Position numbers and translations under genes: made by a program | Source of the DNA: Hyphomicrobiales bacterium | Lineage (GTDB): Bacteria > Pseudomonadota > Alphaproteobacteria > Rhizobiales > Xanthobacteraceae | NCBI GenBank assembly: GCA_017305715.1 | Contig: JAFKKG010000030.1 | Coordinates: 3,728 to 67,727 of the forward strand | Length of the DNA: 64,000 nucleotides | Reading direction: 5' to 3' | In this document: in pieces, positions 14,497 through 28,825 of the stretch | How positions within the stretch are numbered: position 1 is the stretch's first letter | Layout of the letters: every line of letters begins with the position of its first letter | The notes under the pieces: model-generated | What the model was told of the DNA's origin: nothing | The model's input: the letters and a program-made list of their open reading frames with translations, nothing else | Databases searched by the model: none

Positions 14497-15001
14497 GGCA
14501 GCCGCTCAACCGGAGAGGGTGGGCATCTGCCACGTGAAAGCCAGATAATTTACAGGCATTTTTCGCGTTCGCGCCGAGTTTCCGGTTTTTCGAAAAATAA
14601 CAACTCTAACGTTGCGAACGGCTCGTGCTTTGGCCGAGCTGAGGTTGTTCCACAGCTCGTGCCGCCGTGCACATTTTCGCTACGGTTCGGCTGCGGCGCA
14701 ACGCAATGAAAAGACATCTCAACAAATTCTGCGATCCATGCGCGCCTGAATGATCTGCGGATGGTTCGTGCTGCGGTCCATCCTTGGGGTCCGGCATCGC
14801 TCATCGTTCCCATTCCGCTTTTCGAGGGGTGGCGTGGTGGGCTGGTCTGGTCGCCGTGGAGGCGGCTGGAGATCGCTGCCCAACAGCATCGGTTTGATAG
14901 ATGAAATTCTCAGCAGCTTCTGCAAAGGACCAAAAAAAGGGCAAAAAATTCCTGGCGCCCGGTGTCATCATTCGGCTCGTTCAACAACCACAGAGCCTGT
15001 C

Positions 15002-15748
15002 TTGTCCTCATCCAGCACCTTGCCGTATCGAACCGCCGTCGTCACCGGAGCGTCCAGTGGCATCGGGCATGCCACCGTGGAAAAGCTTGCTGCGGCGGGC
15101 GTGGAAGTCCATGCCATCGCGCGGCGCGCCGATCGGCTGAAGGAGTTGAGCCGACGAACTGGCTGCATCGCGCATGCTATCGATGTGACCAATCTTGAAT
15201 CCTGCCGCCGGGCGCTCGACGGCCTCGAGGTGGATGTGCTGGTCAACAATGCCGGCGTGTCCCACAACGACCGTCTGTATGATTTTCCGGTCGAGAAGAT
15301 CGACCAGATCATCGACCTGAACCTGCGCGCGGTACTTCACCTGACGCGATTCGTACTGCCCGGCATGATGGCCCGAAACAACGGCCATGTGGTGATCGTC
15401 AGCTCGATGGCCGGCCATTACCCGATGCTGGGATCGGCGCCGTATTCCGCGACCAAGGCGGCCGTCTCGCAATTCCTCGACGTCATGAGGCTCGATACCA
15501 ACGGCTCGCGGATCCGCTGGACCGAGATCATGCCAGGCCGGGTCGCCACCGAAGTGTTCGAAATCGCCATGGGCGGTGATCGCAAGGCCGCGCAGGAGAA
15601 GTTTCTCGATGGCAAGGATCCGCTGCAGGCCGGGGACCTTGCCGACATGATCATGTTCGCCTTGTCCGCGCCCGCGCATGTCAACATCAGCCGGATCGAT
15701 GCCTACCCGACGCGCCAGGCGTCCGGCGGCTTCGTCTATGCCGGGTAA
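15002..15748 (+). CDS. SDR oxidoreductase, YdfG/3-hydroxy acid dehydrogenase-like (start uncertain, TTG 15002 or 15020)
   Basis: VVTGASSGIG, LVNNAG, YSATK, WTEIMPGRVATE, HVNI. Confidence 0.85.
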   Translation: MSSSSTLPYRTAVVTGASSGIGHATVEKLAAAGVEVHAIARRADRLKELSRRTGCIAHAIDVTNLESCRRALDGLEVDVLVNNAGVSHNDRLYDFPVEKIDQIIDLNLRAVLHLTRFVLPGMMARNNGHVVIVSSMAGHYPMLGSAPYSATKAAVSQFLDVMRLDTNGSRIRWTEIMPGRVATEVFEIAMGGDRKAAQEKFLDGKDPLQAGDLADMIMFALSAPAHVNISRIDAYPTRQASGGFVYAG

Positions 15749-15765
15749 CTCCATTACATAGGTCC

Positions 15766-17394
15766 ATGCTGAAAGGTACTTCGATGGGTTCCACGCGACG
15801 TGACGTTATTGCCGGCTTCGCGGCAGCCGGCCTTTCAGCCGCCATGCCGCACGGCCTGATTTCGCAAGGCATGGCGCAGACCGGCAAACCCAGGAAGGGT
15901 GGCATGCTGAAAATGTGGCTTGCCGAGCCGGTGATGCTGACGGGCGCTTTCAACTCTACCGGCCAGATCTTCCAGATCTCGGGAAAGATGTTCGACGGCC
16001 TGGTGAGCTATGATTTCGATCTCAATCCAAAACCGCAGCTCGCCACCTCGTGGGAGGTGTCGCCCGACGGCAAGTCGATCACGTTCAAGCTGCGGTCCGG
16101 CGTGAAATGGCACGACGGCCAGCCCTTCACTGCTGCTGATGTCCAGTTTTCGGCGACCAAGGTCTGGAAGGCGCTGCATCCGCGCGGTCGTTCGACCTAT
16201 CGCTATCTCTCCGACGTCGAAGCGCCTGATGCGCTCACCGCCATATTCCGTTTCGAGCGGCCATCGCCCTATGTGATGAACTCGCTTGCCGGAATGGAAT
16301 CGCAGATTCTGCCGCGTCATCTGTACGAGGGTAAGGATATCCTGACCAATCCGGCCAACCTGCGGCCGGTTGGAACCGGCCCGTTCAAGTTCAAGGAATG
16401 GCAGCGCGGCCAGTACATCCTGCTCGAACGCAACCCGGATTATTGGGATGCACCGAAACCGTATCTGGACGGTATCGTGATGGTCATCATGCCCGATTCC
16501 GCTTCGCGGGCGGTCGCGCTCGAATCCTCCGAGCTCGATATCGCCGGAGCGATCCCGGTTTCACTCGCCGATGCTCGTCGCCTGGAAAAAATCCCGACAT
16601 TGACGATCCCGCAGCGCGGCAGCGAAGCGATCGCCTATCAGGCGTTCATGGAGCTCAATCTGCGGCGACCTTATTTCCAGGACGTGCGCGTCCGCCAGGC
16701 AATGTATCACGCCATCGATCGCGCGTTCATCGTCAAGAACATCTATTTCGATTTCGGCAAGCCGGCGACGGGACCGATCTCGTACGAAAATACCAAATAC
16801 TATTCCGGTAGCGTGCCACGATACGAATTCAGCATCGCCAGGGCCAATGCGCTGCTCGACGAGGCCGGCATGAAGCGCCAGAGCGACGGGCTTCGTTTCA
16901 GGATCACCCAGGACCCGTTGCCGTTTGGCGATCACTATTTGCGCTCGGCCGACTACTTCAAGCAGCAGATGGCGCTGGTCGGTATCGCGGTCGATATCCG
17001 AAACCAGGATTTCCCCACTTATTACAAGCGGGTCTATACCGACTACGACTTCGACACCACGACCACCGGCGCGTTTGGCCTGACCGACCCTACCGTGGGT
17101 ATCCAGCGATTCTACTGGTCGAAGAACATCACGCCGGGCGTCTCGTTTTCCAATGGCAGCGGTTACAACAGCCCCGCCGCCGACGCTGCGCTGGAGGCAG
17201 CCCAGATCGAGGTCGATCCGGTCAAGCGGGCCGCCTTGTTTCATGACTTTCAGAACATCGTCATGAACGATCTGCCGATCTTTCCGATCGCGGATGCCCA
17301 ATACGTCACGATCAAGAACAAGGCCGTCACCAATACCGAGGTGGATCCATTCGGCATCCATGGCAATTTTGCCGAGGTCTACCTCAACCGATGA
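15766..17394 (+). CDS. ABC transporter substrate-binding protein, family 5 (peptide/nickel), Tat signal
   Basis: STRRDVIAG, PQLATSWEVSPDGKSITFKLRSGVKWHDGQPFTAADV, GTGPFKF; start may be ATG 15784. Confidence 0.9.
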   Translation: MLKGTSMGSTRRDVIAGFAAAGLSAAMPHGLISQGMAQTGKPRKGGMLKMWLAEPVMLTGAFNSTGQIFQISGKMFDGLVSYDFDLNPKPQLATSWEVSPDGKSITFKLRSGVKWHDGQPFTAADVQFSATKVWKALHPRGRSTYRYLSDVEAPDALTAIFRFERPSPYVMNSLAGMESQILPRHLYEGKDILTNPANLRPVGTGPFKFKEWQRGQYILLERNPDYWDAPKPYLDGIVMVIMPDSASRAVALESSELDIAGAIPVSLADARRLEKIPTLTIPQRGSEAIAYQAFMELNLRRPYFQDVRVRQAMYHAIDRAFIVKNIYFDFGKPATGPISYENTKYYSGSVPRYEFSIARANALLDEAGMKRQSDGLRFRITQDPLPFGDHYLRSADYFKQQMALVGIAVDIRNQDFPTYYKRVYTDYDFDTTTTGAFGLTDPTVGIQRFYWSKNITPGVSFSNGSGYNSPAADAALEAAQIEVDPVKRAALFHDFQNIVMNDLPIFPIADAQYVTIKNKAVTNTEVDPFGIHGNFAEVYLNR

Positions 17395-17410
17395 TGGGGA
17401 GCTCGCGCCG

Positions 17411-18391
17411 TTGACCCGCTATGCTGCGTTTCTGATCCGCCGGCTGATGCAGGCATGCATCATCGTCGTCGGCATCGTCTGTGTGAACTTCGTGGTGGTT
17501 CATCTGGCGCCGGGCAACCTCGCGGAGGTAATGGCGGGGCAGGGCGGCGGCGCGGATGCGGGCTATATCGCGGCTCTGAAGGAGCGCTTCGGCCTCGATC
17601 AATCCCTTTGGGTGCAGTTCGGTCGCTATGTCTGGAATTTGCTTCAGTTCGACCTCGGCTATTCGTTCCGCGAAAGCATGCCGGTCTCGGTGCTGATCGC
17701 TGACAAGCTCGCGGCGACGCTGATCCTGATGGTGTCATCGCTGGCCATCGCCTTCATGCTGGGCGTGAGCCTCGGCATGCTGGCGGCGATGCGTCCCAAT
17801 GCGATCTCGGACGTCGTCATCTCGCTGCTGGCGCTGATCGGCTACGCCACGCCGCTGTTCTGGCTCGGGTTGCTGCTGATTCTCCTTTTCACGGTAAAGC
17901 TTGGCTGGCTGCCATCCGGCGGCATGCGAACCATCGGCGTCCCCTCCACGGGGCTTGCCGGTATCCTCGACATCGCCCGTCATGCCATCTTGCCGGTCGT
18001 GACGCTCACGGTGTTCTACATGGCCGTGTTCATCCGCTTGATGCGCGCGTCGGTGCTCAACGTCGCTTCGCTGGATTTCGTCAAGACTGCCTACGCCAAG
18101 GGCATGAGTTTTCGCCAGGTCTATGCCCATCACGTGCTTGGCAACGCGCTGTTGCCGATGGTCACGATGCTCGGCGTCAATGTCGGCGGCATCCTCGGCG
18201 GCTCGGTCGTGGTCGAAACGGTGTTCGGCTGGCCCGGCCTCGGACGGCTGACGTTCGACGCGATCTTCTCGCGCGACATCAATCTGCTGTTGGGCATCCT
18301 GTTCTTTTCGTCGCTGCTGGTGGTCGTGACCAACCTGGTCACCGATCTCGTTTCGGCATGGATCGACCCGCGTATCGAGGTGTCGAAATGA
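17411..18391 (+). CDS. ABC permease, OppB/DppB-like
   Basis: VHLAPG, FDLGYSF, LMRASVL...FVKTAYAKG EAA loop, VVETVFGWPGLG; TTG start after GGGGAG. Confidence 0.9.
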   Translation: MTRYAAFLIRRLMQACIIVVGIVCVNFVVVHLAPGNLAEVMAGQGGGADAGYIAALKERFGLDQSLWVQFGRYVWNLLQFDLGYSFRESMPVSVLIADKLAATLILMVSSLAIAFMLGVSLGMLAAMRPNAISDVVISLLALIGYATPLFWLGLLLILLFTVKLGWLPSGGMRTIGVPSTGLAGILDIARHAILPVVTLTVFYMAVFIRLMRASVLNVASLDFVKTAYAKGMSFRQVYAHHVLGNALLPMVTMLGVNVGGILGGSVVVETVFGWPGLGRLTFDAIFSRDINLLLGILFFSSLLVVVTNLVTDLVSAWIDPRIEVSK

Positions 18392-19230
18392 GTGCGCGTG
18401 GCATGAGAGGCCGGACGCCGTGGCTTCGTCCGTCGGCGCTCACCGGAGCCCTTATCCTGCTCGTCGTCCTGATCGGGGCGGTGGTGGCGCCGGTTCTGTT
18501 TCCTGCGGGACCCTGGCCAGCGGTCGGTGTTCCCTACACGCCGCCCTTCGGGAGCCTCGCGCAGCCTTTCGGCACGGATACGCTGGGGCGCGACGTGGCT
18601 GCGGGCCTGTTCTATGGTGCGCGGGTGTCGCTGACGATCGCGATCGTCGCCACCGTCGCGGCGCTTTCGATCGGCGTACTTGTGGGCGCAACGGCGGGCT
18701 ATGTGCCGGGCTGGTGCGATGACGTATTGATGCGGGTCACCGAGATTTTCCAGACCATCCCGAATTTCATCTTCGTGATCGTGCTGGTGGTGATCTTCCA
18801 GCCATCGATCGTCGCCATCATCAGCGCCATCGCGATTGTCTCATGGCCTCCGATCGCCCGCCTGGTCCGCGCCGAGTTCATGTCGTTGCGTAACCGTGAA
18901 TTCGTGTTGTCCTGCAAGCTGGTGGGCGTTCCGCCTCTGAAAATCATCTTCACCGAAATCCTCCCGAACTGCCTGTCGCCCGTCATCGTCACCAGTTCGA
19001 TCATGGTGGCGACGGCGGTCTTGCTGGAGGCGGGACTGTCGTTTCTCGGGCTTGGCGATCCCAACGTGATTTCCTGGGGGACTATGGTGGCCATCGGCCG
19101 CCCGGCGCTGCGCACCGCGCCCTATCTGTCGATCTTTCCGGGCATCGCGATCTTCCTCACGGTGGTGGCCATCAATCTCGTCGGTGAAGCGCTGAATGAA
19201 GCTCTCGATCCGAGGCGCAACCGTGGCTGA
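18388..19230 (+). CDS. ABC permease, OppC/DppC-like
   Basis: FGTDTLGRDV, ARLVRAEFMSLRNREFV, EAGLSFLGLG. Confidence 0.9.
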   Translation: MSARGMRGRTPWLRPSALTGALILLVVLIGAVVAPVLFPAGPWPAVGVPYTPPFGSLAQPFGTDTLGRDVAAGLFYGARVSLTIAIVATVAALSIGVLVGATAGYVPGWCDDVLMRVTEIFQTIPNFIFVIVLVVIFQPSIVAIISAIAIVSWPPIARLVRAEFMSLRNREFVLSCKLVGVPPLKIIFTEILPNCLSPVIVTSSIMVATAVLLEAGLSFLGLGDPNVISWGTMVAIGRPALRTAPYLSIFPGIAIFLTVVAINLVGEALNEALDPRRNRG

Positions 19231-19266
19231 AACATCTTCTCTGCGCATGTTCGACTGGATACCGAG

Positions 19267-20697
19267 ATGAGCAGGTCGCTCCAGACACTGGAATTGGCGC
19301 TGACGCGCGAAATGGAAATGTTCGCCTATCCGCCGAGGATCTGGCCGCGCGCAACGCAGAGCGCAGACGGCACGCAGGTCTACGACGTCGTCATCATCGG
19401 TGCCGGCCAAGCCGGCATCTCCCTGGCGTTCGGGCTGTTGCGGGAGCGGATCACCAACATCCTGCTGATCGATCGCAGCGGCGCCGGCGAAGAAGGTCCC
19501 TGGGTCACCTGGGCGCGCATGCTGACGCTGCGGACGATCAAGGAACTGACGGGGCCGGACAATGGGCTGCCGTCTGCATCGTTCCGCTCGTGGTACGAGG
19601 CGCAGCATGGCGAGCAGGCGTGGCGAGACCTTGTCCGCATTCCCAAGGCGGAATGGATGGATTATCTGGTATGGCTGCGCCGGTTCCTGCAGCTCCCGGT
19701 CGAGAACGATGCGGCCGTGAGCGCGGTGACGACGGAAGGAGACAGGCTGCGCGTTACGCTACGCGGATCCACCGGCGATCGCACCGTCCAGGCGCGCAAG
19801 GTGGTGGTCGCGACCGGCATAGACGGTTCCGGAGGTCCGCAGGTGCCGGCTTTCGCGCAAGGTCTGCCCAAGACGCTGTGTGCCCACAGTTCCGAGCCAA
19901 TTGATTTCAGCGCCTTGGCCGGCAAGCGCGTCGCCGTGCTTGGCGCGGGAGCTTCGGCCTTCGACAATGCTGCCACGGCACTCGAGGCCGGTGCCCGCGA
20001 GGTGACGCAGTATATGCGTCGTCCGGCGCTCCCCGAAGTCAATGCGCTGAGATTTCTCGAATTCAGCGGATTCTTCCGAAATTTTCGCGCGCTGGACGAT
20101 GTCCGCAAGCTCCGCTTCATGCGCCGCTACCTGTCGCTTCCTACTCCCCCGCCGGCCGACACGCTGCAGCGCTGCCGCAAGCATTCCAACTTCTCGCTGA
20201 AACCCGGCCAGGGCTGGACCGGAATGCGGGCCACCCGGACTGCACTCGAGATCGCCACGCCGGCCGGCGCTGTCGAGGCGGACTTCGCGATACTGGGTAC
20301 CGGATTCAAGATTGATCTCGCCAGCGCGCCGTTTCTGAGGGCGCTGGTGCCCGACATTCTGTTCTGGAACGAGCGCGTCACGCTGACCGGGGAGCGCGTG
20401 GACAGCCTGATCGGAAACTACCCCTATCTGGGATCGGCGATGCAGGCGGTCGGGCGAACGCCTCAGGCCGACCGCGCGTTGCGCAACCTGCATTTCTTCA
20501 ACAGTTCGGGCCTGGTGAGTATCGGCCCGATCTGCAGCGGCATCAACGGCATGCCCTGGGGGGTCGCCGCACTGGTCGCGGGGATTTCCCGCGACCTGTT
20601 CTGCGCGGACGCCGACGCCTTCTATGAGGACTTCGCGGGCTACGACGAGTCGGACGCGAACGAGGCCTACAGGACCGCTACCGCTGCGGCAAACTGA
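19267..20697 (+). CDS. FAD/NAD(P)H-dependent flavoprotein monooxygenase, HpyO (urate hydroxylase)-like family
   Basis: DVVIIGAGQAG, EGPWVTWARMLTLRT.KELTGP, VAVLGAGASAFD, ILGTGF; the N-terminal LE..L..E...YP...WP pattern recalls HpyO homologues. Confidence 0.75.
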   Translation: MSRSLQTLELALTREMEMFAYPPRIWPRATQSADGTQVYDVVIIGAGQAGISLAFGLLRERITNILLIDRSGAGEEGPWVTWARMLTLRTIKELTGPDNGLPSASFRSWYEAQHGEQAWRDLVRIPKAEWMDYLVWLRRFLQLPVENDAAVSAVTTEGDRLRVTLRGSTGDRTVQARKVVVATGIDGSGGPQVPAFAQGLPKTLCAHSSEPIDFSALAGKRVAVLGAGASAFDNAATALEAGAREVTQYMRRPALPEVNALRFLEFSGFFRNFRALDDVRKLRFMRRYLSLPTPPPADTLQRCRKHSNFSLKPGQGWTGMRATRTALEIATPAGAVEADFAILGTGFKIDLASAPFLRALVPDILFWNERVTLTGERVDSLIGNYPYLGSAMQAVGRTPQADRALRNLHFFNSSGLVSIGPICSGINGMPWGVAALVAGISRDLFCADADAFYEDFAGYDESDANEAYRTATAAAN

Positions 20698-20711
20698 AAC
20701 GTCTTGTTGCG

Positions 20712-21230
20712 TCACACCGCGGCGATCGCGTGCCGTGAGGTTTGGGCGGCGCCACGCCCGTTTTGCGCCGATGCGTAGACCAGCGGCAGTTCCGTCGTCG
20801 ACTTGATCTGTTCCATCGCGAACATCGACGACACGTCGTAGAGATCAATTTTCGCGATCAGTCGCTGGTAGAGTTCATCATAGGCGCGGATGTCCGGTAC
20901 CACGGCGCGGATCAGATAATCGACGTCACCACTCAACCGGAAAAAATCCACGACCTCCGGAAAGCCGGTCACGATCTTCCTGAATCGATCGACCCATTCG
21001 GCATTATGCTGGTTGGTCTTCACGGCGATGAACACGCTGACGCCGACATTCAGCTTCTCGGCGTTGAGCAGCGCTACGCGCCCGCGGATATAGCCCAGAC
21101 TCTCCAGCTTCTGGATTCGCCGCCAGCACGGTGTCGAACTCAAGCCGACCCGATCAGCGACTTCCTGGACCGAAAGGCTGCTGTCCACTTGAAGCGTCGC
21201 CAGGATCTTGCGGTCAAACTCGTCGAGCAC
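20712..21230 (-). CDS. Lrp/AsnC family regulator, DecR(YbaO)-like
   Basis: DEFDRKILATLQ, VGLSSTPCWRRIQKLE, RLSGDVDYLIR, SSMFAMEQIKSTTELP; divergent from a cysteine desulfhydrase. Confidence 0.85.
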   Translation of the reverse strand: MLDEFDRKILATLQVDSSLSVQEVADRVGLSSTPCWRRIQKLESLGYIRGRVALLNAEKLNVGVSVFIAVKTNQHNAEWVDRFRKIVTGFPEVVDFFRLSGDVDYLIRAVVPDIRAYDELYQRLIAKIDLYDVSSMFAMEQIKSTTELPLVYASAQNGRGAAQTSRHAIAAV

Positions 21231-21436
21231 GTTGGTCTCCAGTTCAGGTGAAAATGAGATGACTCTCTTTGCCTCTAACGATGTTCATGCAAGTTTATTG
21301 CCAGATTTCAGCTATCGCGAGCATGAATATCTGTCACCGCGCTCAAACTTGCGGCAACAAGCAAGCAAACTGCGGACACTTTCCGTTAGGCTTCAACGTA
21401 TCGGCCGGAGCGATGCGGGCCGCGAAAGGTGATTTG

Positions 21437-22579
21437 ATGACGCGCCCTTGCCGCGAGTGGGTGAACGCCTCGATCCGCCGGATCGAAATGGAGCGCATGC
21501 GCTCCGCCGAAACCCATTTGCTCAGGATCGATCTGCCGGCTCTGCCGGGGCTCACGCTTTATCTGAAAGACGAAACGACCCATTTGACCGGCAGCCTCAA
21601 GCACCGTCTCGCGCGCTCGCTGTTTCTCTACGCGCTGTGCAATGACCGGATCGGGCCGAACTCGACGCTTGTCGAGGCCTCGAGTGGTTCGACCGCCGTC
21701 TCCGAAGCCTATTTCGCGCGGCTGCTGGGGCTACGCTTCGTCGCGGTGATGCCGCGAACCACGACGACGGAGAAGCAGGCGGAGATCGTGGCGAACGGCG
21801 GCGAGATCCATCTCGTCGACGATCCCGGAGCGATCTACGCAACGGCGCGACGCCTCGCGGATGAAACCGGCGGCTGCTATCTGGATCAATTTACCTTCGC
21901 AGAACGCGCGGTCGACTGGCGCTGCGACAATATCGCCGATTCGATTTTCTCACAGATGGCGGCTGAAGAGCATCGGGTCCCGACGTGGCTGGTGTGTGGA
22001 GCAGGCACCGGCGGAACCTCGGCGACGATCGGCCGGTATGTCCGCCATCGTGGACTGCCGACGAGGCTTTGCCTGGCCGATCCCCTTGAGTCCGTCTACC
22101 ACCGGCATATGGCCGATCCCCGAATCCGGATATGGCCGAACGGCCGCTCGGTCATCGAGGGCATCGGCCGTCCGCAGGTCGAGGCCTCCTTTGTTCCCGA
22201 ACTGATTGACCGGACAATTGCGGTGCCGGATGCGGCGAGCATCGCCGCGGCCCGCGTCCTGTCACAGTTTCTCGGGCGGCGCTGCGGCGGTTCGACGGGC
22301 ACCAACCTGTGGGCGTCCCTTGCGATCCTGAAGGAGATGGCGGCAGCGGGCGAGAAGGGATCGCTGGTGACGATATTGTGCGATTCCGGCGATCGCTATC
22401 GCAGCACGCTGTTCGACGACGGGTGGCTGGCGGAGCAGGGACTGTCGTGTGCCGGCTACATGGCGCAGCTGGAGCAACTGCTGGCGCCGACTCCGGCAAC
22501 GGCAAGAACCGGCAGGAACGATGCGGCGTACGGCCGTCCCGTCAGTGAACTGGCGGCCACGCTCGCTCAGGGCCGATAG
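21437..22579 (+). CDS. PLP-dependent cysteine synthase-family protein, Cds1-type L-cysteine desulfhydrase
   Basis: [70 protein letters not shown]. Confidence 0.85.
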
Positions 22580-22624
22580 GCACGAACGCCGGCGTGACGC
22601 TTGTTACATGGAGGTGCAACCTGA

Positions 22625-22990
22625 ATGTCAGAGCTTCTCTTTTCACCCGATCATGCATGGGTGCTTCGTGACGGCGATCATGCGACGGTCGGAATCAGCG
22701 ATCACGCTCAGGATTCGCTCGGGCCTCTCGTCCATGTCGACCTGCCGTCGATCGACACGATCCTCGTCAGCGGAGCCTCTTGCGGCTTGGTGGAAAGCAT
22801 GAAGACGGCCTCCGATGTGATCGCGCCGCTCGCCGGCAGGGTGGTGGAGATCAACAAAGCGGTTCTGGACGATCCATCCCTCATCAATCGTGCGGCGGAG
22901 ACCGATGGCTGGCTTTTCCGGCTTGCCGTTACCGACGGCATAGCTGCAAGCCGGTTGATGGCGCGGGCGGCCTATATCGCGGGTCTCTAG
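22625..22990 (+). CDS. gcvH: Glycine cleavage H-like lipoyl carrier protein (orphan)
   Basis: DHAWV, ATVGISDHAQDSLG, VESMKTASDVIAP (lipoyl Lys), GWLF; GGAGG RBS. Confidence 0.85.
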   Translation: MSELLFSPDHAWVLRDGDHATVGISDHAQDSLGPLVHVDLPSIDTILVSGASCGLVESMKTASDVIAPLAGRVVEINKAVLDDPSLINRAAETDGWLFRLAVTDGIAASRLMARAAYIAGL

Positions 22991-23041
22991 AAGGTTCGAG
23001 CAGACGGCTTCTTCTTCAAGACGAGACGGATTGAGAATCTC

Positions 23042-24754
23042 ATGCTGGACAGCCCGGAAACATCAGTCGTGACGCCCTCGGCACGTCGTGCTCAAATTGA
23101 GCCGTGCTTGCCGGAAAGCGGTGCCATGCTGCTGCAACTCGACGATCTGACCTTGCAGCTGCCGCCGGGGGCTGACCGCACTTTCGCGACCGAAGGCGTA
23201 TCGCTCTCGGTCAAGCCCGGCGAGATCGTTTGCATCGTGGGTGAAAGCGGTTCGGGCAAATCGATGACGGCCAGCGCCGTCATGCGGCTGTTGCCCCCCG
23301 GTGCGGCCATCGCGCGCGGCAGCATCCGGCTCGACGGGCGCGACCTTGCGGTGCTGCCGGAAGCTCAGATACGAAAAATCCGGGGTGCGGAGATCGGTAT
23401 GATCTTCCAGGACCCGATGAGCGCGCTCAACCCGATCCGGCGGGTCGGCGATCAGATCGCGGAGGTATTTCGGCTTCACACCGATCTTGGCAAGGCGGAA
23501 ATCCGTACACGGATCCTGGCGCTGCTCCATGATGTCCACATCCGCGATCCCGAGCGTACGCTGCGCTCCTATCCGCACCAGCTCTCCGGTGGTCAGCGCC
23601 AGCGCGCGATGATCGCCATGGCGCTGGCGCTGGAGCCACGCGTTCTCATTGCCGACGAGCCGACCACCGCGCTCGACGTGACGACGCAGGCCCAGATCCT
23701 CAAATTGATCCGCGAGCTTCAACGCAAGATCGGCACCGGGGTGTTGTTCATCACGCATGATTTCGGTGTGGTGGCCGATATCGCCGACCGGATCATTGTC
23801 ATGCAGTCGGGCCGTGTCGTCGAACAAGGACCCGCCGAGCAGATCCTCAACGCGCCGCAGCACCCCTATACCCAGAAGCTGATCGCCGCCGTTCCCAAGC
23901 TTACGGCGCCGGACCCGGCAGATGTGTCATCCGATCATGTCCTCGTCCTCGACCGGCTGTCGAAGACCTACGGGTCGTACGGCCTGTTCGGCTTCGGTCG
24001 CAAGCTGACCCATGCCGTCAAGGCGGTAAGCCTGGAACTTCCGCGCGGCGCATCGCTCGGCATCGTGGGCGAAAGCGGATCGGGCAAATCGACACTTGCC
24101 CGATGCATCGTGCGCCTGCTCGATCCCGATGAAGGCAGCATATGGCTCGACGGTATCGACTACACTTCGCTCGGGCCACGTGAGCTGAGGAAACGTTCGC
24201 AGGCCATGCAGATGGTGTTTCAGGACCCGTTTGCGTCGTTGAACCCGCGCCGAAAAGCGGGCGAACTGGTGGCGCAAGGGCTGCGGGAATTGGGTGTCAA
24301 GAAAGCGGCAGCTCGCGAGCGCGCCGTCGAATTGTTCACGCTCGTGGGTCTCGATCCCGCTTCTCTCGATCGCTATCCTCACGAATTCTCGGGCGGGCAG
24401 CGACAGCGCATCGGGCTGGCGCGGGCGCTTGCGCTGCAGCCGAAGGTGCTGATCGCGGATGAACCGGTCTCGGCGCTCGATGTGCTGGTCCAGGCACAAG
24501 TGCTCGAGCTGTTGGCCGATCTGCGACGTCGTCTTGGCATTTCACTGGTGTTCATCACGCACGATCTGCGGGTCACATCCCAGATATGCGATCGAGTGGC
24601 GGTGATGCAGAACGGCGAGATCGTCGAGCATGGCCCGACTGCGGCTGTCTTCACGTCGCCACAGCATCCCTACACGCGGCTGCTGCTGGATTCGATCCCC
24701 GGGCGCCGATGGTCTTCGCGCCCGGATAGCGAAAGGCAGGTCGCGAGGGGGTGA
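23042..24754 (+). CDS. ABC ATP-binding protein with two fused domains (OppD/F-like)
   Basis: Two Walker A motifs (GESGSGKS), LSGGQRQR and FSGGQRQR, two HPYT motifs. Confidence 0.92.
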   Translation: MLDSPETSVVTPSARRAQIEPCLPESGAMLLQLDDLTLQLPPGADRTFATEGVSLSVKPGEIVCIVGESGSGKSMTASAVMRLLPPGAAIARGSIRLDGRDLAVLPEAQIRKIRGAEIGMIFQDPMSALNPIRRVGDQIAEVFRLHTDLGKAEIRTRILALLHDVHIRDPERTLRSYPHQLSGGQRQRAMIAMALALEPRVLIADEPTTALDVTTQAQILKLIRELQRKIGTGVLFITHDFGVVADIADRIIVMQSGRVVEQGPAEQILNAPQHPYTQKLIAAVPKLTAPDPADVSSDHVLVLDRLSKTYGSYGLFGFGRKLTHAVKAVSLELPRGASLGIVGESGSGKSTLARCIVRLLDPDEGSIWLDGIDYTSLGPRELRKRSQAMQMVFQDPFASLNPRRKAGELVAQGLRELGVKKAAARERAVELFTLVGLDPASLDRYPHEFSGGQRQRIGLARALALQPKVLIADEPVSALDVLVQAQVLELLADLRRRLGISLVFITHDLRVTSQICDRVAVMQNGEIVEHGPTAAVFTSPQHPYTRLLLDSIPGRRWSSRPDSERQVARG

Positions 24755-24829: not shown

Positions 24830-25246
24830 ATGAGTTCAACTCATTTCGATCAGGGCATGGCGCTCAAGCGCAAGGTTCTCGGCGATGATTATGTCGACCG
24901 CGCCTGGGCCGAAGCCCAGAACGACGACTTCGCCAAGGCCATGCAGCAAGTCATGACGGAAGCCGGCTGGGGAACGGTCTGGATTCGCCCGGGGATCGAG
25001 GTCAAGACCCGGCTGATGCTGAATCTGGCGATGCTGACGGCACTCAACAGGCCGCACGAACTGGCGATCCATCTGCGCGGCGCGATCCGCAATGGTGTGA
25101 CCCGCGACCAGGTCCGGGAGATCCTGATCCATACCGGTCCCTATTGTGGTTGGCCCGCCACGCTCGACGCCGTGCGCGTCGCAAGGCGTGTGTTCGCGGA
25201 GATCGAAGCCGGTGAGGCGGGAGAGACGCCGGTGGGGTCCGGATAG
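24830..25246 (+). CDS. Carboxymuconolactone decarboxylase (CMD) family protein
   Basis: GMALKRKVLGDDYVDRA, WGTVWIRPG, ELAIHLRGAIRNG, HTGPYCGWPA. Confidence 0.88.
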   Translation: MSSTHFDQGMALKRKVLGDDYVDRAWAEAQNDDFAKAMQQVMTEAGWGTVWIRPGIEVKTRLMLNLAMLTALNRPHELAIHLRGAIRNGVTRDQVREILIHTGPYCGWPATLDAVRVARRVFAEIEAGEAGETPVGSG

Positions 25247-25397: not shown

Positions 25398-26423
25398 ATG
25401 AAGCGTTTCGCAAACTTGAAGAGACTAGGCTTTTTCACCCGGCTTCTCGATGACGCGACGCCGGCGGAACGATATCGGCTGGCGGCGGAGCAGATCAGGC
25501 ATGCGGAGAAAGCCGGTCTTGATTCCGCTTGGATCGCGCAGCACCATTTTCACGAAGGCGAGGGCGGCCTGCCGGCTCCTTTCGCTTTCCTCGGTTTCGT
25601 CGCGGCGCAGACCTCCCGCATTCGCCTCGGGACCGGAATCGTCACGCTTCCGCTGGAACATCCGGTGCGAGTGGCGGAGGACGCCGCGGTGCTCGACCTG
25701 TTGTCGAACGGTCGTTTTGAACTCGGCGTCGGGACCGGCGGAAACCCGTCGGCCTTTGCGGCCTTTGGCCTCGATAGCGCGCTGCGTGCGGAAATTTTCG
25801 CGAAGAATCTCGATGTTGTCCGCAACGCCCTGGCGGGCGGACCGCTGGTCGGCGGCGACACGCTCTATCCACCGAGGCCGCAATTGTGCGACCGGATCTG
25901 GCAAGCGACCTTTTCGGTGAGCGGCGGGACGCGGGCGGGCGAGGCGGGCGACGGCCTGCTGTTGTCGCGGACGCAGCCCCGTTCCAGGGAAGCGCCGCGC
26001 GCATCGCTGGCCGAGATCCAGCATCCCATTATCCACGCTTATCTCAAGGCCCTGCCGCCGGGGCGTGAGCCCCGGATCATGGCATCGCGCAACGTCTTCG
26101 TCGCCGACGATCGCGCGGAAGCGTTGCGCCTGGCCGACATCGGACTGCGGCGTGTGCGCGATCACCTGGTCGCGACCGGTCACATCCTGTTGGGAGACAC
26201 GCTGCCCGACATGATCAGGTCGTTTGATATTCATGTCGGGACGCCTGACGATGTCATCGCCTCGCTCCGTGGGGACAGCACGCTGGAGCGGGTGACCGAT
26301 CTGGTCTTTCAGGCCCATTCGATCGATCCCCCGCATCGCTTTATCCTGCGATCGATCGAACTGGTTGCCGAGAAAGTTGCCCCGGCGCTGGGTTGGGTGG
26401 CGGACGCGGCGCGGGTGGATTGA
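25398..26423 (+). CDS. Putative FMN-dependent luciferase-like monooxygenase (KPN_01858-type)
   Basis: RLGFFTRLLD, SAWIAQHHFH, IRLGTGIVTLPLEHPVRVAED, QATFS, GLLLSRTQPR. Confidence 0.85.
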   Translation: MKRFANLKRLGFFTRLLDDATPAERYRLAAEQIRHAEKAGLDSAWIAQHHFHEGEGGLPAPFAFLGFVAAQTSRIRLGTGIVTLPLEHPVRVAEDAAVLDLLSNGRFELGVGTGGNPSAFAAFGLDSALRAEIFAKNLDVVRNALAGGPLVGGDTLYPPRPQLCDRIWQATFSVSGGTRAGEAGDGLLLSRTQPRSREAPRASLAEIQHPIIHAYLKALPPGREPRIMASRNVFVADDRAEALRLADIGLRRVRDHLVATGHILLGDTLPDMIRSFDIHVGTPDDVIASLRGDSTLERVTDLVFQAHSIDPPHRFILRSIELVAEKVAPALGWVADAARVD

Positions 26424-26458: not shown

Positions 26459-27097
26459 ATGATGAGTGCCGAGACAACAGATATCATCGATCTTCTTGCC
26501 GGCATCGAACCCGGCTCCAGCTTGAACGGCATCCGCGCCCGGCGCTTGCAAGCGCGGGAGAACGCCCAGAAGAGCTATATCGCCTTATTTGAACCAGCCG
26601 ATTTCGGAGACGTCACGGCCACGGAACGATATGCCGTCGCGGCTTTCGTCGCCGGCGTCCATCAGGAGCCGGCCACCGCCGCCTTCTATCTGGCCAGGCT
26701 TGCCGAGGCCGCAAACGGATCAGGGCTGGTCGAAGCGCTCAAGGTCGAAATCGGACGGGCCAGAACGGAAGGCCCGTATGGCGCCTTTCCGGCCGGGCCG
26801 CTCTCGGTCGAGGACAAGGCCGGCTTGATCTATCGCATGGCCGGAGACGGCCGAGAGGTCCTTGGCGCAAGACTTGCCGCCGCGCTCGAACATGCGCATC
26901 TGCTGGTCTTCCGTCCACGCGATGCGGCTCCCGCGGCCATGCAGGCGCTACTCGATGCCGGCTGGTCGACCACCGCGATCGTGACATTGTCTCAACTGGT
27001 CTCGTTCCTCTCGTTTCAGATTCGGGTTGTCGCCGGCCTGCGGACGCTTGGCGCGTCTCTCCCGTCTCAGGCCAATGCCGCAGTCAAAGCCAGCTAA
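26459..27097 (+). CDS. CMD-domain protein (Avi_7170-type)
   Basis: DIIDLLAGIEPGS, RLQARENAQKSY.ALF, HAHLLVFRP, IVTLSQLVSFLSFQIR. Confidence 0.75.
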   Translation: MMSAETTDIIDLLAGIEPGSSLNGIRARRLQARENAQKSYIALFEPADFGDVTATERYAVAAFVAGVHQEPATAAFYLARLAEAANGSGLVEALKVEIGRARTEGPYGAFPAGPLSVEDKAGLIYRMAGDGREVLGARLAAALEHAHLLVFRPRDAAPAAMQALLDAGWSTTAIVTLSQLVSFLSFQIRVVAGLRTLGASLPSQANAAVKAS

Positions 27098-27111: not shown

Positions 27112-27720
27112 ATGCGTGATTCAATCGTCGTTCAGACCAACGAGAATGAACCGGTCGTTTTCACCCAGGCCGAATTGGGCTGGCTGCCCTGGCTCGAGCC
27201 GTTTCCCGAAGCGGGGTTGACCGAGCGGCACTGGGCCGGCCTGGTCGATCGCTCGCGCGCGAAGTCGGACTACTTTCGTCTGCTGGTGCGCGATCCCGAA
27301 ATCCTGGAAGCCAGGACCAAGACCGACAAGGACATCTTCTACAACATCGCCGACGGCTTGCCGCGGGCCGATCGCGAACTCGCGGCTGCCGCGACATCCC
27401 GCTACAATGGGTGCATCTATTGTGTGTCCGTGCACGCGCGCTTCGCCACGGTCCATTCCAAGCGCCGTGACGATGTTCAGCGTTTGCTCGACGAAGGCGT
27501 CGGTGCCGATCTCGGCGAGCGCTGGAACGCAATCGTCAGGGCCTCGGTTGCGCTGGCCTCGACGCCTGTCGGATTCGGTCAACAGCATATCGAGGAACTG
27601 CGCAGCGTCGGTCTCGATGACGCCGAAATCGTCGATGTGATCAACAGCGCGGCATTCTTCAACTGGGCCAACCGATTGATGCTTTCCCTGGGCGAGCCGA
27701 CGATGGCGGGCGAGGCGTGA
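27112..27720 (+). CDS. Alkylhydroperoxidase AhpD-domain protein (Avi_7169-type)
   Basis: FTQAELGWLPWL, RTKTDKDIFY, SRYNGCIYCVSVHAR (CxxC), AFFNWANRLMLSLGEP. Confidence 0.82.
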   Translation: MRDSIVVQTNENEPVVFTQAELGWLPWLEPFPEAGLTERHWAGLVDRSRAKSDYFRLLVRDPEILEARTKTDKDIFYNIADGLPRADRELAAAATSRYNGCIYCVSVHARFATVHSKRRDDVQRLLDEGVGADLGERWNAIVRASVALASTPVGFGQQHIEELRSVGLDDAEIVDVINSAAFFNWANRLMLSLGEPTMAGEA

Positions 27721-27907: not shown

Positions 27908-28825
27908 TCAGCCCAGGGCAACCCGTGCTTCGGTTGAACATCCCTGCCGGACAATTCGTTCGAATGCGTTTGCTGCGGGGATGTCGATCCTTCCAGGCGC
28001 CTTCAGCTGCCACAGCGTGCGTTCGATGGCCAGATCACGCATCGGCACGACCTTCAATCGCTCCAGTTTGAGCTGGTCCTCAATCGTCGCCGTTGAAACG
28101 ATGGAGACACCGAGCCCCGCGGCGACGACCTGCTTGATGGCTTCGGTACTGCCGACTTCGAGTGTCCGTCGAGGCTCTACCCCCTGCGATGCCAGGGCCT
28201 GGGCCACGACTTCCCGGGATCCCGAACCCGGCTCTCGAATGATCAGGATTTCTTCCGCCAGAGCCGCGGACTCAATGGCGTCACCGGCTAGCGCGAACGG
28301 ATGACGGGGATTGACGATAAGGTGCATTTCATCCGTCAGCCAAGGCTCGCTGACCAGATGGTCATCCTCCACCGGACCTTCGACGAGGGCGACTTCAATA
28401 TCGTGCCCCGCCATCAGATCGGCGATATCGCGTGTGTTGGCGCTGACCAAATGCAGGTCTATCCCGGGGTAGGCGCGGTGGAAGTTTCCCAGATATTCGG
28501 CGATCATATAGGTGGCGATGGTGGTGCTGGCTCCAATGCGAAGTGAGCCGCTGCTGAGATTGTGCAGAGAGGCCAGTTCATCTTCAGCTGCGCGTTCAGC
28601 CGCAAACAGGGCATCGGCGTGCCTCACCAGCAAATGTCCTTCGCGGGTTGGGCGGACGCCCTTGGGGGTCCGATCCAGCAGTCGACATCCAACCTGCAAT
28701 TCGAAGTCCCGCACGCCCTTGGAGATCGCGGGCTGGCTGATGTGGAGAAGGTCCGCAGCCCGCGAAAAACTCCCGGCTCGCACCACTGTGGCGAACAGGC
28801 GAAACAAATGAAGGTTTAGAGGCAT
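27908..28825 (-). CDS. LysR family regulator, YeiE/CysL-like
   Basis: SFSRAADLLHISQPAISK, LRIGASTTIATY, ALVEGP, IIREPGSGSRE, GSTEAIKQ; divergent from a YeiH-like gene. Confidence 0.88.
   Translation of the reverse strand: MPLNLHLFRLFATVVRAGSFSRAADLLHISQPAISKGVRDFELQVGCRLLDRTPKGVRPTREGHLLVRHADALFAAERAAEDELASLHNLSSGSLRIGASTTIATYMIAEYLGNFHRAYPGIDLHLVSANTRDIADLMAGHDIEVALVEGPVEDDHLVSEPWLTDEMHLIVNPRHPFALAGDAIESAALAEEILIIREPGSGSREVVAQALASQGVEPRRTLEVGSTEAIKQVVAAGLGVSIVSTATIEDQLKLERLKVVPMRDLAIERTLWQLKAPGRIDIPAANAFERIVRQGCSTEARVALG

Follow-up and report, generated by a model that had tools for sequence, protein, structure and literature searches.

An H-protein paralog from a Hyphomicrobiales bacterium belongs to a small clade associated with an HpyO-family hydroxylase and AhpD-like proteins

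For a long time, lipoyl proteins were assigned to the 2-oxoacid dehydrogenases and to glycine cleavage only. That the H-protein fold lends itself to other uses is known from two cases, LbpA in sulfur oxidation and GcvH-L in redox defence. Here we analyse a 64,000-nt stretch of the genome of a Hyphomicrobiales bacterium (assembly GCA_017305715.1, contig JAFKKG010000030.1, positions 3,728 to 67,727; hereafter, the window), in which a gene for a paralog of the glycine cleavage H protein, GcvH, follows a gene for a pyridoxal phosphate (PLP) enzyme. A reading made from the DNA letters only (the sequence-only reading) had treated these two genes as a pair, with a cysteine desulfhydrase of the Cds1 type delivering sulfide or persulfide to a lipoyl protein. 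Our analysis instead places the paralog in a small, undescribed clade of H-protein paralogs that is tied to an HpyO-family flavoprotein hydroxylase and to AhpD-like proteins.

The closest described systems differ in their carriers and in their gene contexts. In glycine cleavage, binding and release of the aminomethyl-lipoyl arm involve six residues of Escherichia coli GcvH, Glu-12, His-13, Glu-14, Ser-67, Asp-68, and Tyr-70 (PMC7733448). LbpA is marked by a pair of strictly conserved Cys residues, near its N and C termini, and by a more basic surface, has dedicated sLpl(AB)/LipS1/LipS2 maturation genes, and adjoins hdr-like genes (PMC6067878; 10.64898/2026.10.01.755906). GcvH-L, a second H-protein-like lipoyl carrier outside glycine cleavage, is encoded in the SirTM/macrodomain/LplA2 operon of Staphylococcus aureus and Streptococcus pyogenes and is linked to oxidative-stress or redox functions. 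In the AhpC-AhpD-DlaT-Lpd relay of Mycobacterium tuberculosis, the CxxC motif of AhpD receives electrons from a dihydrolipoyl group carried on a protein, and dihydrolipoamide dehydrogenase (Lpd) and NADH regenerate that group (Bryk et al. 2002, cited in PMC12440151).

The paralog, its functional positions, and the PLP enzyme occupy the following positions in the window:

21437..22579, plus strand: Cds1-like fold-type II PLP enzyme, putative cysteine desulfhydrase, 380 aa (PALP; NCBIfam Cds1; PLP-binding Lys55 in SLKHR)
22610..22614, plus strand: Shine-Dalgarno sequence GGAGG, 10 nt 5′ of the ATG of the paralog, by direct reading of the sequence
22625..22990, plus strand: H-protein paralog, 121 aa (working label 'GcvH-L type 3'; GCV_H, 102 bits)
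22655-22657, 22724-22726, and 22820-22822, plus strand: clade-specific codons of the paralog, for Ala11, Pro34, and Ile66, respectively
22802-22804, plus strand: codon of the lipoyl-lysine, Lys60, of the paralog, in VESMKTAS / ESMKTASD

The two open reading frames (ORFs), the gap of exactly 45 bp between them, the strong ribosome-binding site, and the intact VESMKTAS motif all lie where the sequence-only reading had placed them. The paralog matches Pfam GCV_H well above threshold (102 bits versus a cut-off of 22.2) and passes the looser NCBIfam GcvH subfamily model (PRK01202, 121.6 bits versus 117), and it falls under the cut-off of the equivalog model (TIGR00527, 101 bits versus 115.85). An AlphaFold (AF2) model of the paralog, with a pLDDT of 93.4, gives TM scores of 0.92–0.95 to solved H proteins (1zko, 3klr, 3ab9) and of 0.80 to S. 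pyogenes GcvH-L. Among four testable features of canonical GcvH, the paralog appears, from this model, to have the H-protein fold with the lipoyl-lysine at the hairpin tip, and it lacks the other three.

The source genome (7.45 Mb, 51 contigs) contains three GCV_H matches, of which the window paralog is the second. The best match (145 bits) is the middle gene of a normal gcvT-gcvH-gcvP operon on contig C44, flanked by a 381-aa gcvT and a 961-aa gcvP, and its product, the genome's own canonical GcvH, is 40% identical to the window paralog. The paralog is thus a second GcvH copy, and the term 'orphan' used in the sequence-only reading holds within the window and not for the genome, because the canonical operon is on C44. 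As that reading had also said, gcvT, gcvP, and a lipoate ligase gene are absent from the window: no homologue was returned there when GcvT and GcvP of the same genome served as tblastn queries, and the LplA/LipB-type gene and lipA, each present in a single copy in the genome, are both on contigs other than the window's. The third GCV_H match is weak (22.9 bits, in a 77-aa open frame at C35:320770-320931; L003, L005) and may be a lipoyl/biotinyl-like fragment or a chance match.

Relatives of the paralog are rare. A word-indexed search of 5.8 billion proteins yielded one relative at 69% identity (P0002), with all others at or below 50%, and among 1.84 billion cluster representatives, searched exhaustively with HMMER, none reached E ≤ 1e-30, the best identity being 52%. 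In a first tree, P0167 (46% identity) was the sister of the window paralog, and a profile search added P0315, P0317, and P0323 (49–57% identity), three clade members that the single-sequence word search had overlooked. The six known sequences form one clade, with support of 99/89, outside the canonical GcvH clade of the genus; a scan of metagenome contigs for further members found none. None of 36 same-genus species carries the paralog, their single matches (39–46% identical) being canonical copies, and the clade profile scored at most 146 bits (canonical copies) over 400 other alphaproteobacterial genomes, versus 205 bits in the window's genome. The absence from all 36 same-genus genomes, together with the position of the clade outside the genus's canonical clade, rules out a recent within-genus duplication.

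The clade has a residue signature that affects the cavity for the aminomethyl-lipoyl arm. In a comparison of alignment columns between the clade and 186 other family members, followed by alignment of all six members, the Glu of the H-E-W motif is replaced by Ala, Thr, Val, or Ser in 6/6 clade members (Glu in 85% of the rest of the family), the L-G-D motif has Pro or Leu for its Asp (96% of family members have Asp or Glu here), and the Tyr three residues past the ASD aspartate is replaced by Ile in 6/6 (Tyr or Phe in 78% of the family), giving the signature H-[ATVS]-W, LG-[PL]-LV, ES-[MA]-KTASD-[VI]-IAP. The window equivalents of the six E. coli cavity residues are Asp9, His10, Ala11, Ser63, Asp64, and Ile66. 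With the Glu-14 and Tyr-70 equivalents replaced throughout, the clade has lost two cargo-binding residues. In contrast, the residues linked to lipoylation (Lys60, Glu57, Ser58, and Asp64) are retained, as are four of five acidic LplA-contact residues (residue list from 10.64898/2026.10.01.755906), and the paralog is therefore predicted to be lipoylatable at Lys60. The two closest clade members have pI values of 4.63 and 4.17, and the genome's own GcvH has a pI of 4.49. The sole Cys of the paralog, Cys53, lies at K-7, where 23% of the other family members compared, and presumably also E. coli GcvH, carry Cys. Neither ESMK nor a Cys at K-7 can be read as the sign of a special function, since 'CGLVESMKASS' proteins adjoin gcvT. 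In particular, a large GcvH group with E-C-G-L-V-E-S-M-K-A-S-S, encoded directly 3′ of gcvT on metagenome contigs L112-L175, consists of canonical H proteins, and 49 of 64 metagenome loci that were fetched with the clade motif patterns and carry canonical-type GcvH have gcvT nearby.

The paralog is under purifying selection that is looser than that on its neighbours, with a dN/dS of 0.19 between the window and the locus of its 69% relative (L006), versus 0.07–0.11 for neighbour genes. The intact frame and this dN/dS rule out a pseudogene. Ten near-identical contigs show zero nucleotide differences within the gene, so that a comparison at the population level is uninformative. On the best explanation, the paralog is an intact protein that probably no longer works in glycine cleavage. 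The suggestion of a role outside glycine cleavage, made in the sequence-only reading, is borne out by the separate clade, by the lost cavity residues, and by the consistent absence of gcvT and gcvP beside the paralog; 'glycine cleavage system protein GcvH' is the wrong annotation name for these genes.

The paralog lies within a gene cluster of the window that comprises, in addition to the genes given above, the following:

14750..15748, plus strand: short-chain dehydrogenase (SDR), first gene of the cluster (ORF; adh_short/KR at the same position in the ~99%-identical locus L007), with counterparts in L006 and L176
15766..17394, plus strand: ABC substrate-binding protein, peptide/nickel-type, Opp/Dpp/Gsi family (NCBIfam Opp4A/NikA/GsiB-type, all under cut-off; PF00496 in L007)
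17423..19230 (~17411/17423-18391; 18358-19230), plus strand: two ABC permease genes, start codons uncertain (NCBIfam Opp2B/Opp4B and Opp4C)
19267..20697, plus strand: HpyO-family FAD/NAD(P)H two-Rossmann flavoprotein hydroxylase (hereafter, FMO), 476 aa (Pfam Pyr_redox_3, Lys_Orn_oxgnase, NAD_binding_9)
20712..21230, minus strand: Lrp/AsnC-type regulator, divergent from the PLP enzyme gene (Pfam HTH_AsnC-type, AsnC_trans_reg)
23042..24754, plus strand: fused double ABC ATPase of the importer, DppD/F-GsiA type (Pfam ABC_tran twice, oligo_HPY; NCBIfam GsiA/YejF-type under cut-off)
24830..25246, plus strand: PcaC-like CMD-family protein, 138 aa (CMD138; Pfam CMD; TIGR02425, 136 bits versus a cut-off of 155.7; 88% homologue in L006)
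25398..26423, plus strand: luciferase-like FMN monooxygenase (LLM), TIGR04027 (539 bits, cut-off 412.9; PDB 8k74, 2.6e-119)
26459..27097, plus strand: Cys-less CMD-domain protein, TIGR04029, first member of the type A pair (220 bits, cut-off 100.75; no Cys in the translation)
27112..27720, plus strand: AhpD-like alkylhydroperoxidase-domain protein, TIGR04030 (295 bits, cut-off 233; its PDB relatives are AhpD and peroxidase-related proteins)
27412-27435, plus strand: CIYCVSVH (CxxCxxxH) of this AhpD-like protein
27908..28825, minus strand: LysR-family regulator, boundary of the cluster (Pfam HTH_1, LysR_substrate)

The six clade members occur in five architectures. The window and L007 have, in order, FMO, Lrp (minus strand), PLP enzyme, paralog, ATPase, CMD138, LLM, and the type A CMD pair. 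L006 (69%) follows the window order up to the paralog and continues with a 168-aa CMD-like protein, a 190-aa AhpD-like protein (CEYCTSVH), the ATPase, and CMD135, without LLM. L111 (46%) has AsnC (minus strand), PLP enzyme, FMO, paralog (after a 5-nt gap), two binding proteins, two permeases, ATPase, and a type A pair. L176/L177 (49%) and L180 (57%) have IclR (minus strand), FMO, paralog (4-nt overlap), a CMD-like protein, an AhpD-like protein (CVFCASVH), binding protein, permeases, and ATPase, with LLM, a type A pair, and SDR in addition in L176. L181 (54%), a 1.9-kb contig, has FMO, paralog (4-nt overlap), and an AhpD-family gene (1-nt overlap).

The constant partners of the paralog are the FMO, an AhpD-like CxxCxxxH protein, and the ABC importer, not the desulfhydrase. 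Specifically, an FMO gene is upstream of the paralog in 6/6 members and adjoins it except where the Lrp/PLP-enzyme unit intervenes (window and L006), with overlaps of 4 nt in L176, L180, and L181 and a gap of 5 nt in L111. An AhpD-like CxxCxxxH protein is encoded in 6/6 clusters, directly 3′ of the paralog in L006, L176, L180, and L181 and elsewhere within the cluster in the window and L111, and is usually paired with a CMD-fold partner without a CxxC motif. The link to AhpD/CMD proteins that the sequence-only reading had drawn thus finds support in conserved synteny. A peptide-type ABC importer is present wherever the recovered flanks reach; gcvT and gcvP are absent from the flanks of the clade members; and a Cds1-like gene is present in 3/5 architectures, at two different positions.

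The CMD pairs are of two paralogous kinds, which share 31–43% identity: type A (TIGR04029/04030) follows LLM, and type B follows the H-protein paralog, with CVFCASVH or CEYCTSVH as the CxxC motif directly 3′ of it (L176, L180, L006). The window has lost the type B pair and carries type A. The window cluster looks like a hybrid, in that L006 has a type B pair between paralog and ATPase (L006:10366-11558) where the window has 51 bp (22990-23042), and the LLM and type A pair farther downstream in the window resemble the Cds1-like locus L017. The importer of the window is split (15766-24754), with the binding protein and permeases 5′ of the FMO/Lrp/PLP-enzyme/paralog block and the sole ATPase gene 3′ of it. 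Since no plus-strand terminator-like site was found in the window between the PLP enzyme gene, the paralog, and the ATPase gene, these three genes are probably co-transcribed. In L176 and L177, the IclR-FMO-paralog cluster is closely preceded by an rve_3 integrase-core fragment (L176:438-935), a hint that the cluster is mobile, in agreement with its patchy distribution.

The FMO conserves both dinucleotide-binding motifs and has no conserved Cys, so that it is unlikely to reduce the disulfide of the lipoyl arm as Lpd does. The FMO homologues directly upstream of the paralog in L111, L176, L180, and L181 are 36–39% identical to it, and homologues of 35–48% identity are present in 18/400 other alphaproteobacterial genomes, none with the paralog and most in unrelated contexts. 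HpyO is an FAD/NAD(P)H urate hydroxylase of a family treated in PMC4562309. A 46% homologue in L204:8423-11748 (G288, contig C3) overlaps an OHCU decarboxylase gene upstream and a HIUase/transthyretin gene downstream, adjoins a PuuE-type polysaccharide deacetylase gene, and, from this context, looks like an HpyO-type urate hydroxylase. Because that homologue sits in a urate-degradation context, the window FMO is best described as an HpyO-family hydroxylase.

Comparison with the described systems sets the clade apart from each of them. The paralog resembles canonical GcvH in fold, length, ES-x-K-x-A-S-D hairpin, acidic pI, most LplA-contact acidic residues, and probably, judging from these residues, LipB/LipA lipoylation machinery; it differs in its 40% identity, its separate clade, the loss of the Glu-14/Tyr-70 equivalents, the change of the LGD Asp to Pro/Leu, and its position in an FMO/AhpD-like/ABC-importer cluster, never adjoining gcvT or gcvP. 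It resembles LbpA of the sHdr system as an H-protein homologue recruited outside glycine cleavage in a sulfur-related gene context. Unlike LbpA, it has Cys53 only and no N- and C-terminal Cys pair, it is acidic (LbpA pI is above ~4.5), the genome has a single LplA/LipB-type gene, and its neighbours are an ABC importer, FMO, Lrp, PLP enzyme, CMD/AhpD, and LLM rather than an hdr-like cluster; Cys pair, surface and ligase, and hdr context all failing, membership of LbpA is ruled out. Membership of the sirtuin-linked GcvH-L is likewise ruled out, since sirtuin, macrodomain, and LplA2 are absent among the neighbours and GcvH-L (5a35) is a distant match, the paralog being much nearer to canonical GcvH (E 1e-31 versus 1.7e-8; TM 0.95 versus 0.80). 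Both analogies had been raised in the sequence-only reading, and their defining features fail here. The locus shares with the M. tuberculosis relay a lipoyl protein encoded together with an AhpD-fold CxxCxxxH protein. It differs in that the donor there is the E2 protein DlaT and here an H-protein paralog, in that the clusters here encode no AhpC-type peroxiredoxin, and in that the AhpD-like proteins here are of the TIGR04030/TIGR01926 type, not AhpD orthologues, with a CMD partner that has no CxxC. Among PDB sequence matches at E ≤ 0.01, judged by molecule names and entry codes, M. tuberculosis AhpD was not identified.

The function that we consider most likely, and put forward tentatively, is that of a lipoyl dithiol relay devoted to the AhpD-like protein, which is the simplest reading because a lipoylatable paralog and an AhpD-like CxxCxxxH protein are always paired. 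We infer the lipoylation, the electron path, and the substrate as follows. Housekeeping LipB and LipA would lipoylate Lys60, since the genome has no dedicated ligase; Lpd and NADH would keep the lipoyl arm reduced; and the dihydrolipoyl arm would pass electrons to the CxxC of the AhpD-like protein, in the manner of DlaT and AhpD in M. tuberculosis. The AhpD-like protein would in turn reduce an oxidised species (peroxide, sulfenate, or disulfide) made by the flavin monooxygenases of the cluster from an imported substrate, which is probably sulfur-containing, as suggested by the Cds1-like enzyme and the Lrp regulator. The recurring association of LLM with type A pairs and of FMO with type B pairs suggests that the CMD pair handles the oxidised product of the monooxygenase.

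Several observations weigh against such a relay. The cluster genes of the window and the related loci include no peroxiredoxin family. The dN/dS of the paralog is about twice that of its neighbours. In the window, which has no type B pair, the paralog would need the type A pair, 4 kb farther downstream, as its relay partner. Both the CMD pairs and the FMO family are widespread without the paralog, so that neither strictly requires the relay. With six members in five architectures, all from one ancestral cluster, the number of independent synteny observations is small, and the tight coupling of the paralog to the FMO gene fits a direct role as an FMO partner equally well.

In that role, which we consider rather unlikely, the lipoyl arm would bring a substrate, or a sulfur atom, to the flavoprotein or take it away, or would resolve an S-oxygenated product, much as H protein shuttles between the P, T, and L proteins, and the AhpD-like pair would act afterwards. 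The 4-nt stop/start overlap in three contigs, with 5 nt in a fourth, is a coupling typical of fixed-ratio proteins, and the remodelling of the aminomethyl cavity to smaller or hydrophobic residues in all members is as expected for a different cargo. The FMO, having no conserved Cys and keeping its own NAD(P)H site, needs no electron donor. However, FMO homologues of 35–48% identity work without the paralog in 18 other alphaproteobacterial genomes, one of them in a plain urate-degradation context, the two genes are 1.9 kb apart in the window with an opposite-strand gene between them, and we know of no flavin hydroxylase class that uses a lipoyl protein. A very improbable reading for this genome is that the paralog is a relic, left behind as a mere operon passenger after a rebuilding of the cluster removed its cognate type B pair. 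The intact frame, strong ribosome-binding site, retention of all lipoylation residues, and dN/dS of 0.19, indicative of purifying selection, argue against a relic, as does the type A AhpD-like pair in the same cluster; the absence of the type B pair of L006 from the window and L007, the 51 bp between paralog and ATPase gene, and a dN/dS above that of the neighbours are what such a history would leave.

The model of the sequence-only reading, in which the lipoyl protein accepts sulfide or persulfide from the Cds1-like enzyme and passes it onward, we regard as improbable: nothing that we found favours the transfer itself, which is conceivable in this lineage. The two genes of the window, 45 bp apart and with no terminator between them, look co-transcribed, the same order recurs in L006, and 3/5 architectures include a Cds1-like gene. 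In L111, however, the FMO gene separates the PLP enzyme and paralog genes; L176 and L180 carry the paralog and no Cds1-like gene in the recovered flanks; 0/80 Cds1-family loci have GcvH within 6 kb, and the 90%-identical gene of L017 is without GcvH; and LbpA, which does handle sulfur, has an N- and C-terminal Cys pair with no counterpart in the paralog. There is, finally, a slim chance that the paralog is a spare canonical H protein on an accessory island, serving as a backup glycine-cleavage shuttle or as a lipoyl relay for a 2-oxoacid dehydrogenase. Canonical GcvH indeed provides its best PDB and family matches, the PRK01202 cut-off is passed, the surface is acidic as in GcvH, and ESMK with Cys at K-7 occurs in canonical GcvH genes beside gcvT. 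This view has to contend with the score under the TIGR00527 cut-off, the loss of the Glu-14 and Tyr-70 equivalents in 6/6 members, the distinct clade, the conserved FMO/AhpD-like synteny, and a position that is never beside gcvT or gcvP (versus gcvT at 49/64 canonical-type metagenome loci).

The PLP enzyme itself is Cds1-like rather than a certified Cds1 equivalog, and its desulfhydrase activity is putative on sequence grounds. It matches Pfam PALP with 150.9 bits (E 6.4e-44) and NCBIfam Cds1 (NF052478) with 495.4 bits, versus an equivalog cut-off of 600 and 157 bits for the next family; Cds1 is thus by far the best family, as the sequence-only reading had it, at a score under the cut-off. The Cds1-like family is large, with at least 8,000 scored matches and more than 599 stretches in the genome scan, and homologues of 63–90% identity are common. 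In 80 genome loci with Cds1-family genes (53–66% identity), no GcvH-like ORF lies within 6 kb. The closest homologue, in L017 (90%), is accompanied by Lrp (minus strand), LLM, CMD, and AhpD-like genes, without H protein, FMO, or peptide importer; L018 (75%) resembles L017, and L019 (68%) retains the Lrp partner only. Divergent Lrp and PLP-enzyme genes, the latter of the Cds1 family, are found again in L017-L019, L047, L058, L065, L075, L076, and L103, and behave as a two-gene unit across many lineages. The Cds1-GcvH adjacency of the window arises because this unit lies between the hydroxylase and H-protein genes; as a general rule, the adjacency is ruled out by the 0/80 loci and by the closest homologues without GcvH. 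The proposed core pairing thus did not hold, the clusters of P0323 and P0315 also having no Cds1-like gene in the recovered flanks. The sequence-only reading had named two outcomes that, together with complementation of a gcvH mutant, would tell against it, grouping with canonical GcvH and a cds1-gcvH adjacency that is not conserved: the paralog groups apart, and the adjacency is not conserved.

A more far-reaching reading, possible though doubtful, is that the H-protein fold was recruited here for a third time, independently of LbpA/sHdr and GcvH-L/SirTM, to work other than glycine cleavage. The lipoyl carrier would be physically coupled to a hydroxylase of the HpyO family and to an AhpD-like thiol oxidoreductase, and together they would make up a new module for the lipoyl-dependent oxidation or desulfurisation of an imported compound, organosulfur or peptide-like in nature. 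With its clear signature and fixed partner genes, the clade is a small case in which a further reuse of this kind can be tested directly and, by naming their reductant, may give the TIGR04029/TIGR04030 CMD/AhpD pairs, which are widespread, a first link to a function.

In the literature searched, we found no description of this gene set or of the function of the TIGR04027-30 cassette. The TIGR04027/TIGR04029/TIGR04030 cassette is intact in the window, 2.4 kb downstream of the paralog, and the type B pair is a paralogous version, 31–43% identical, of its CMD pair; unlike the clade clusters, the cassette as described has no H-protein gene and has LLM instead of the HpyO-family flavoprotein. The closest structure to the LLM, PDB 8k74, is discussed in the literature found only as a poly(acrylic acid) monooxygenase.

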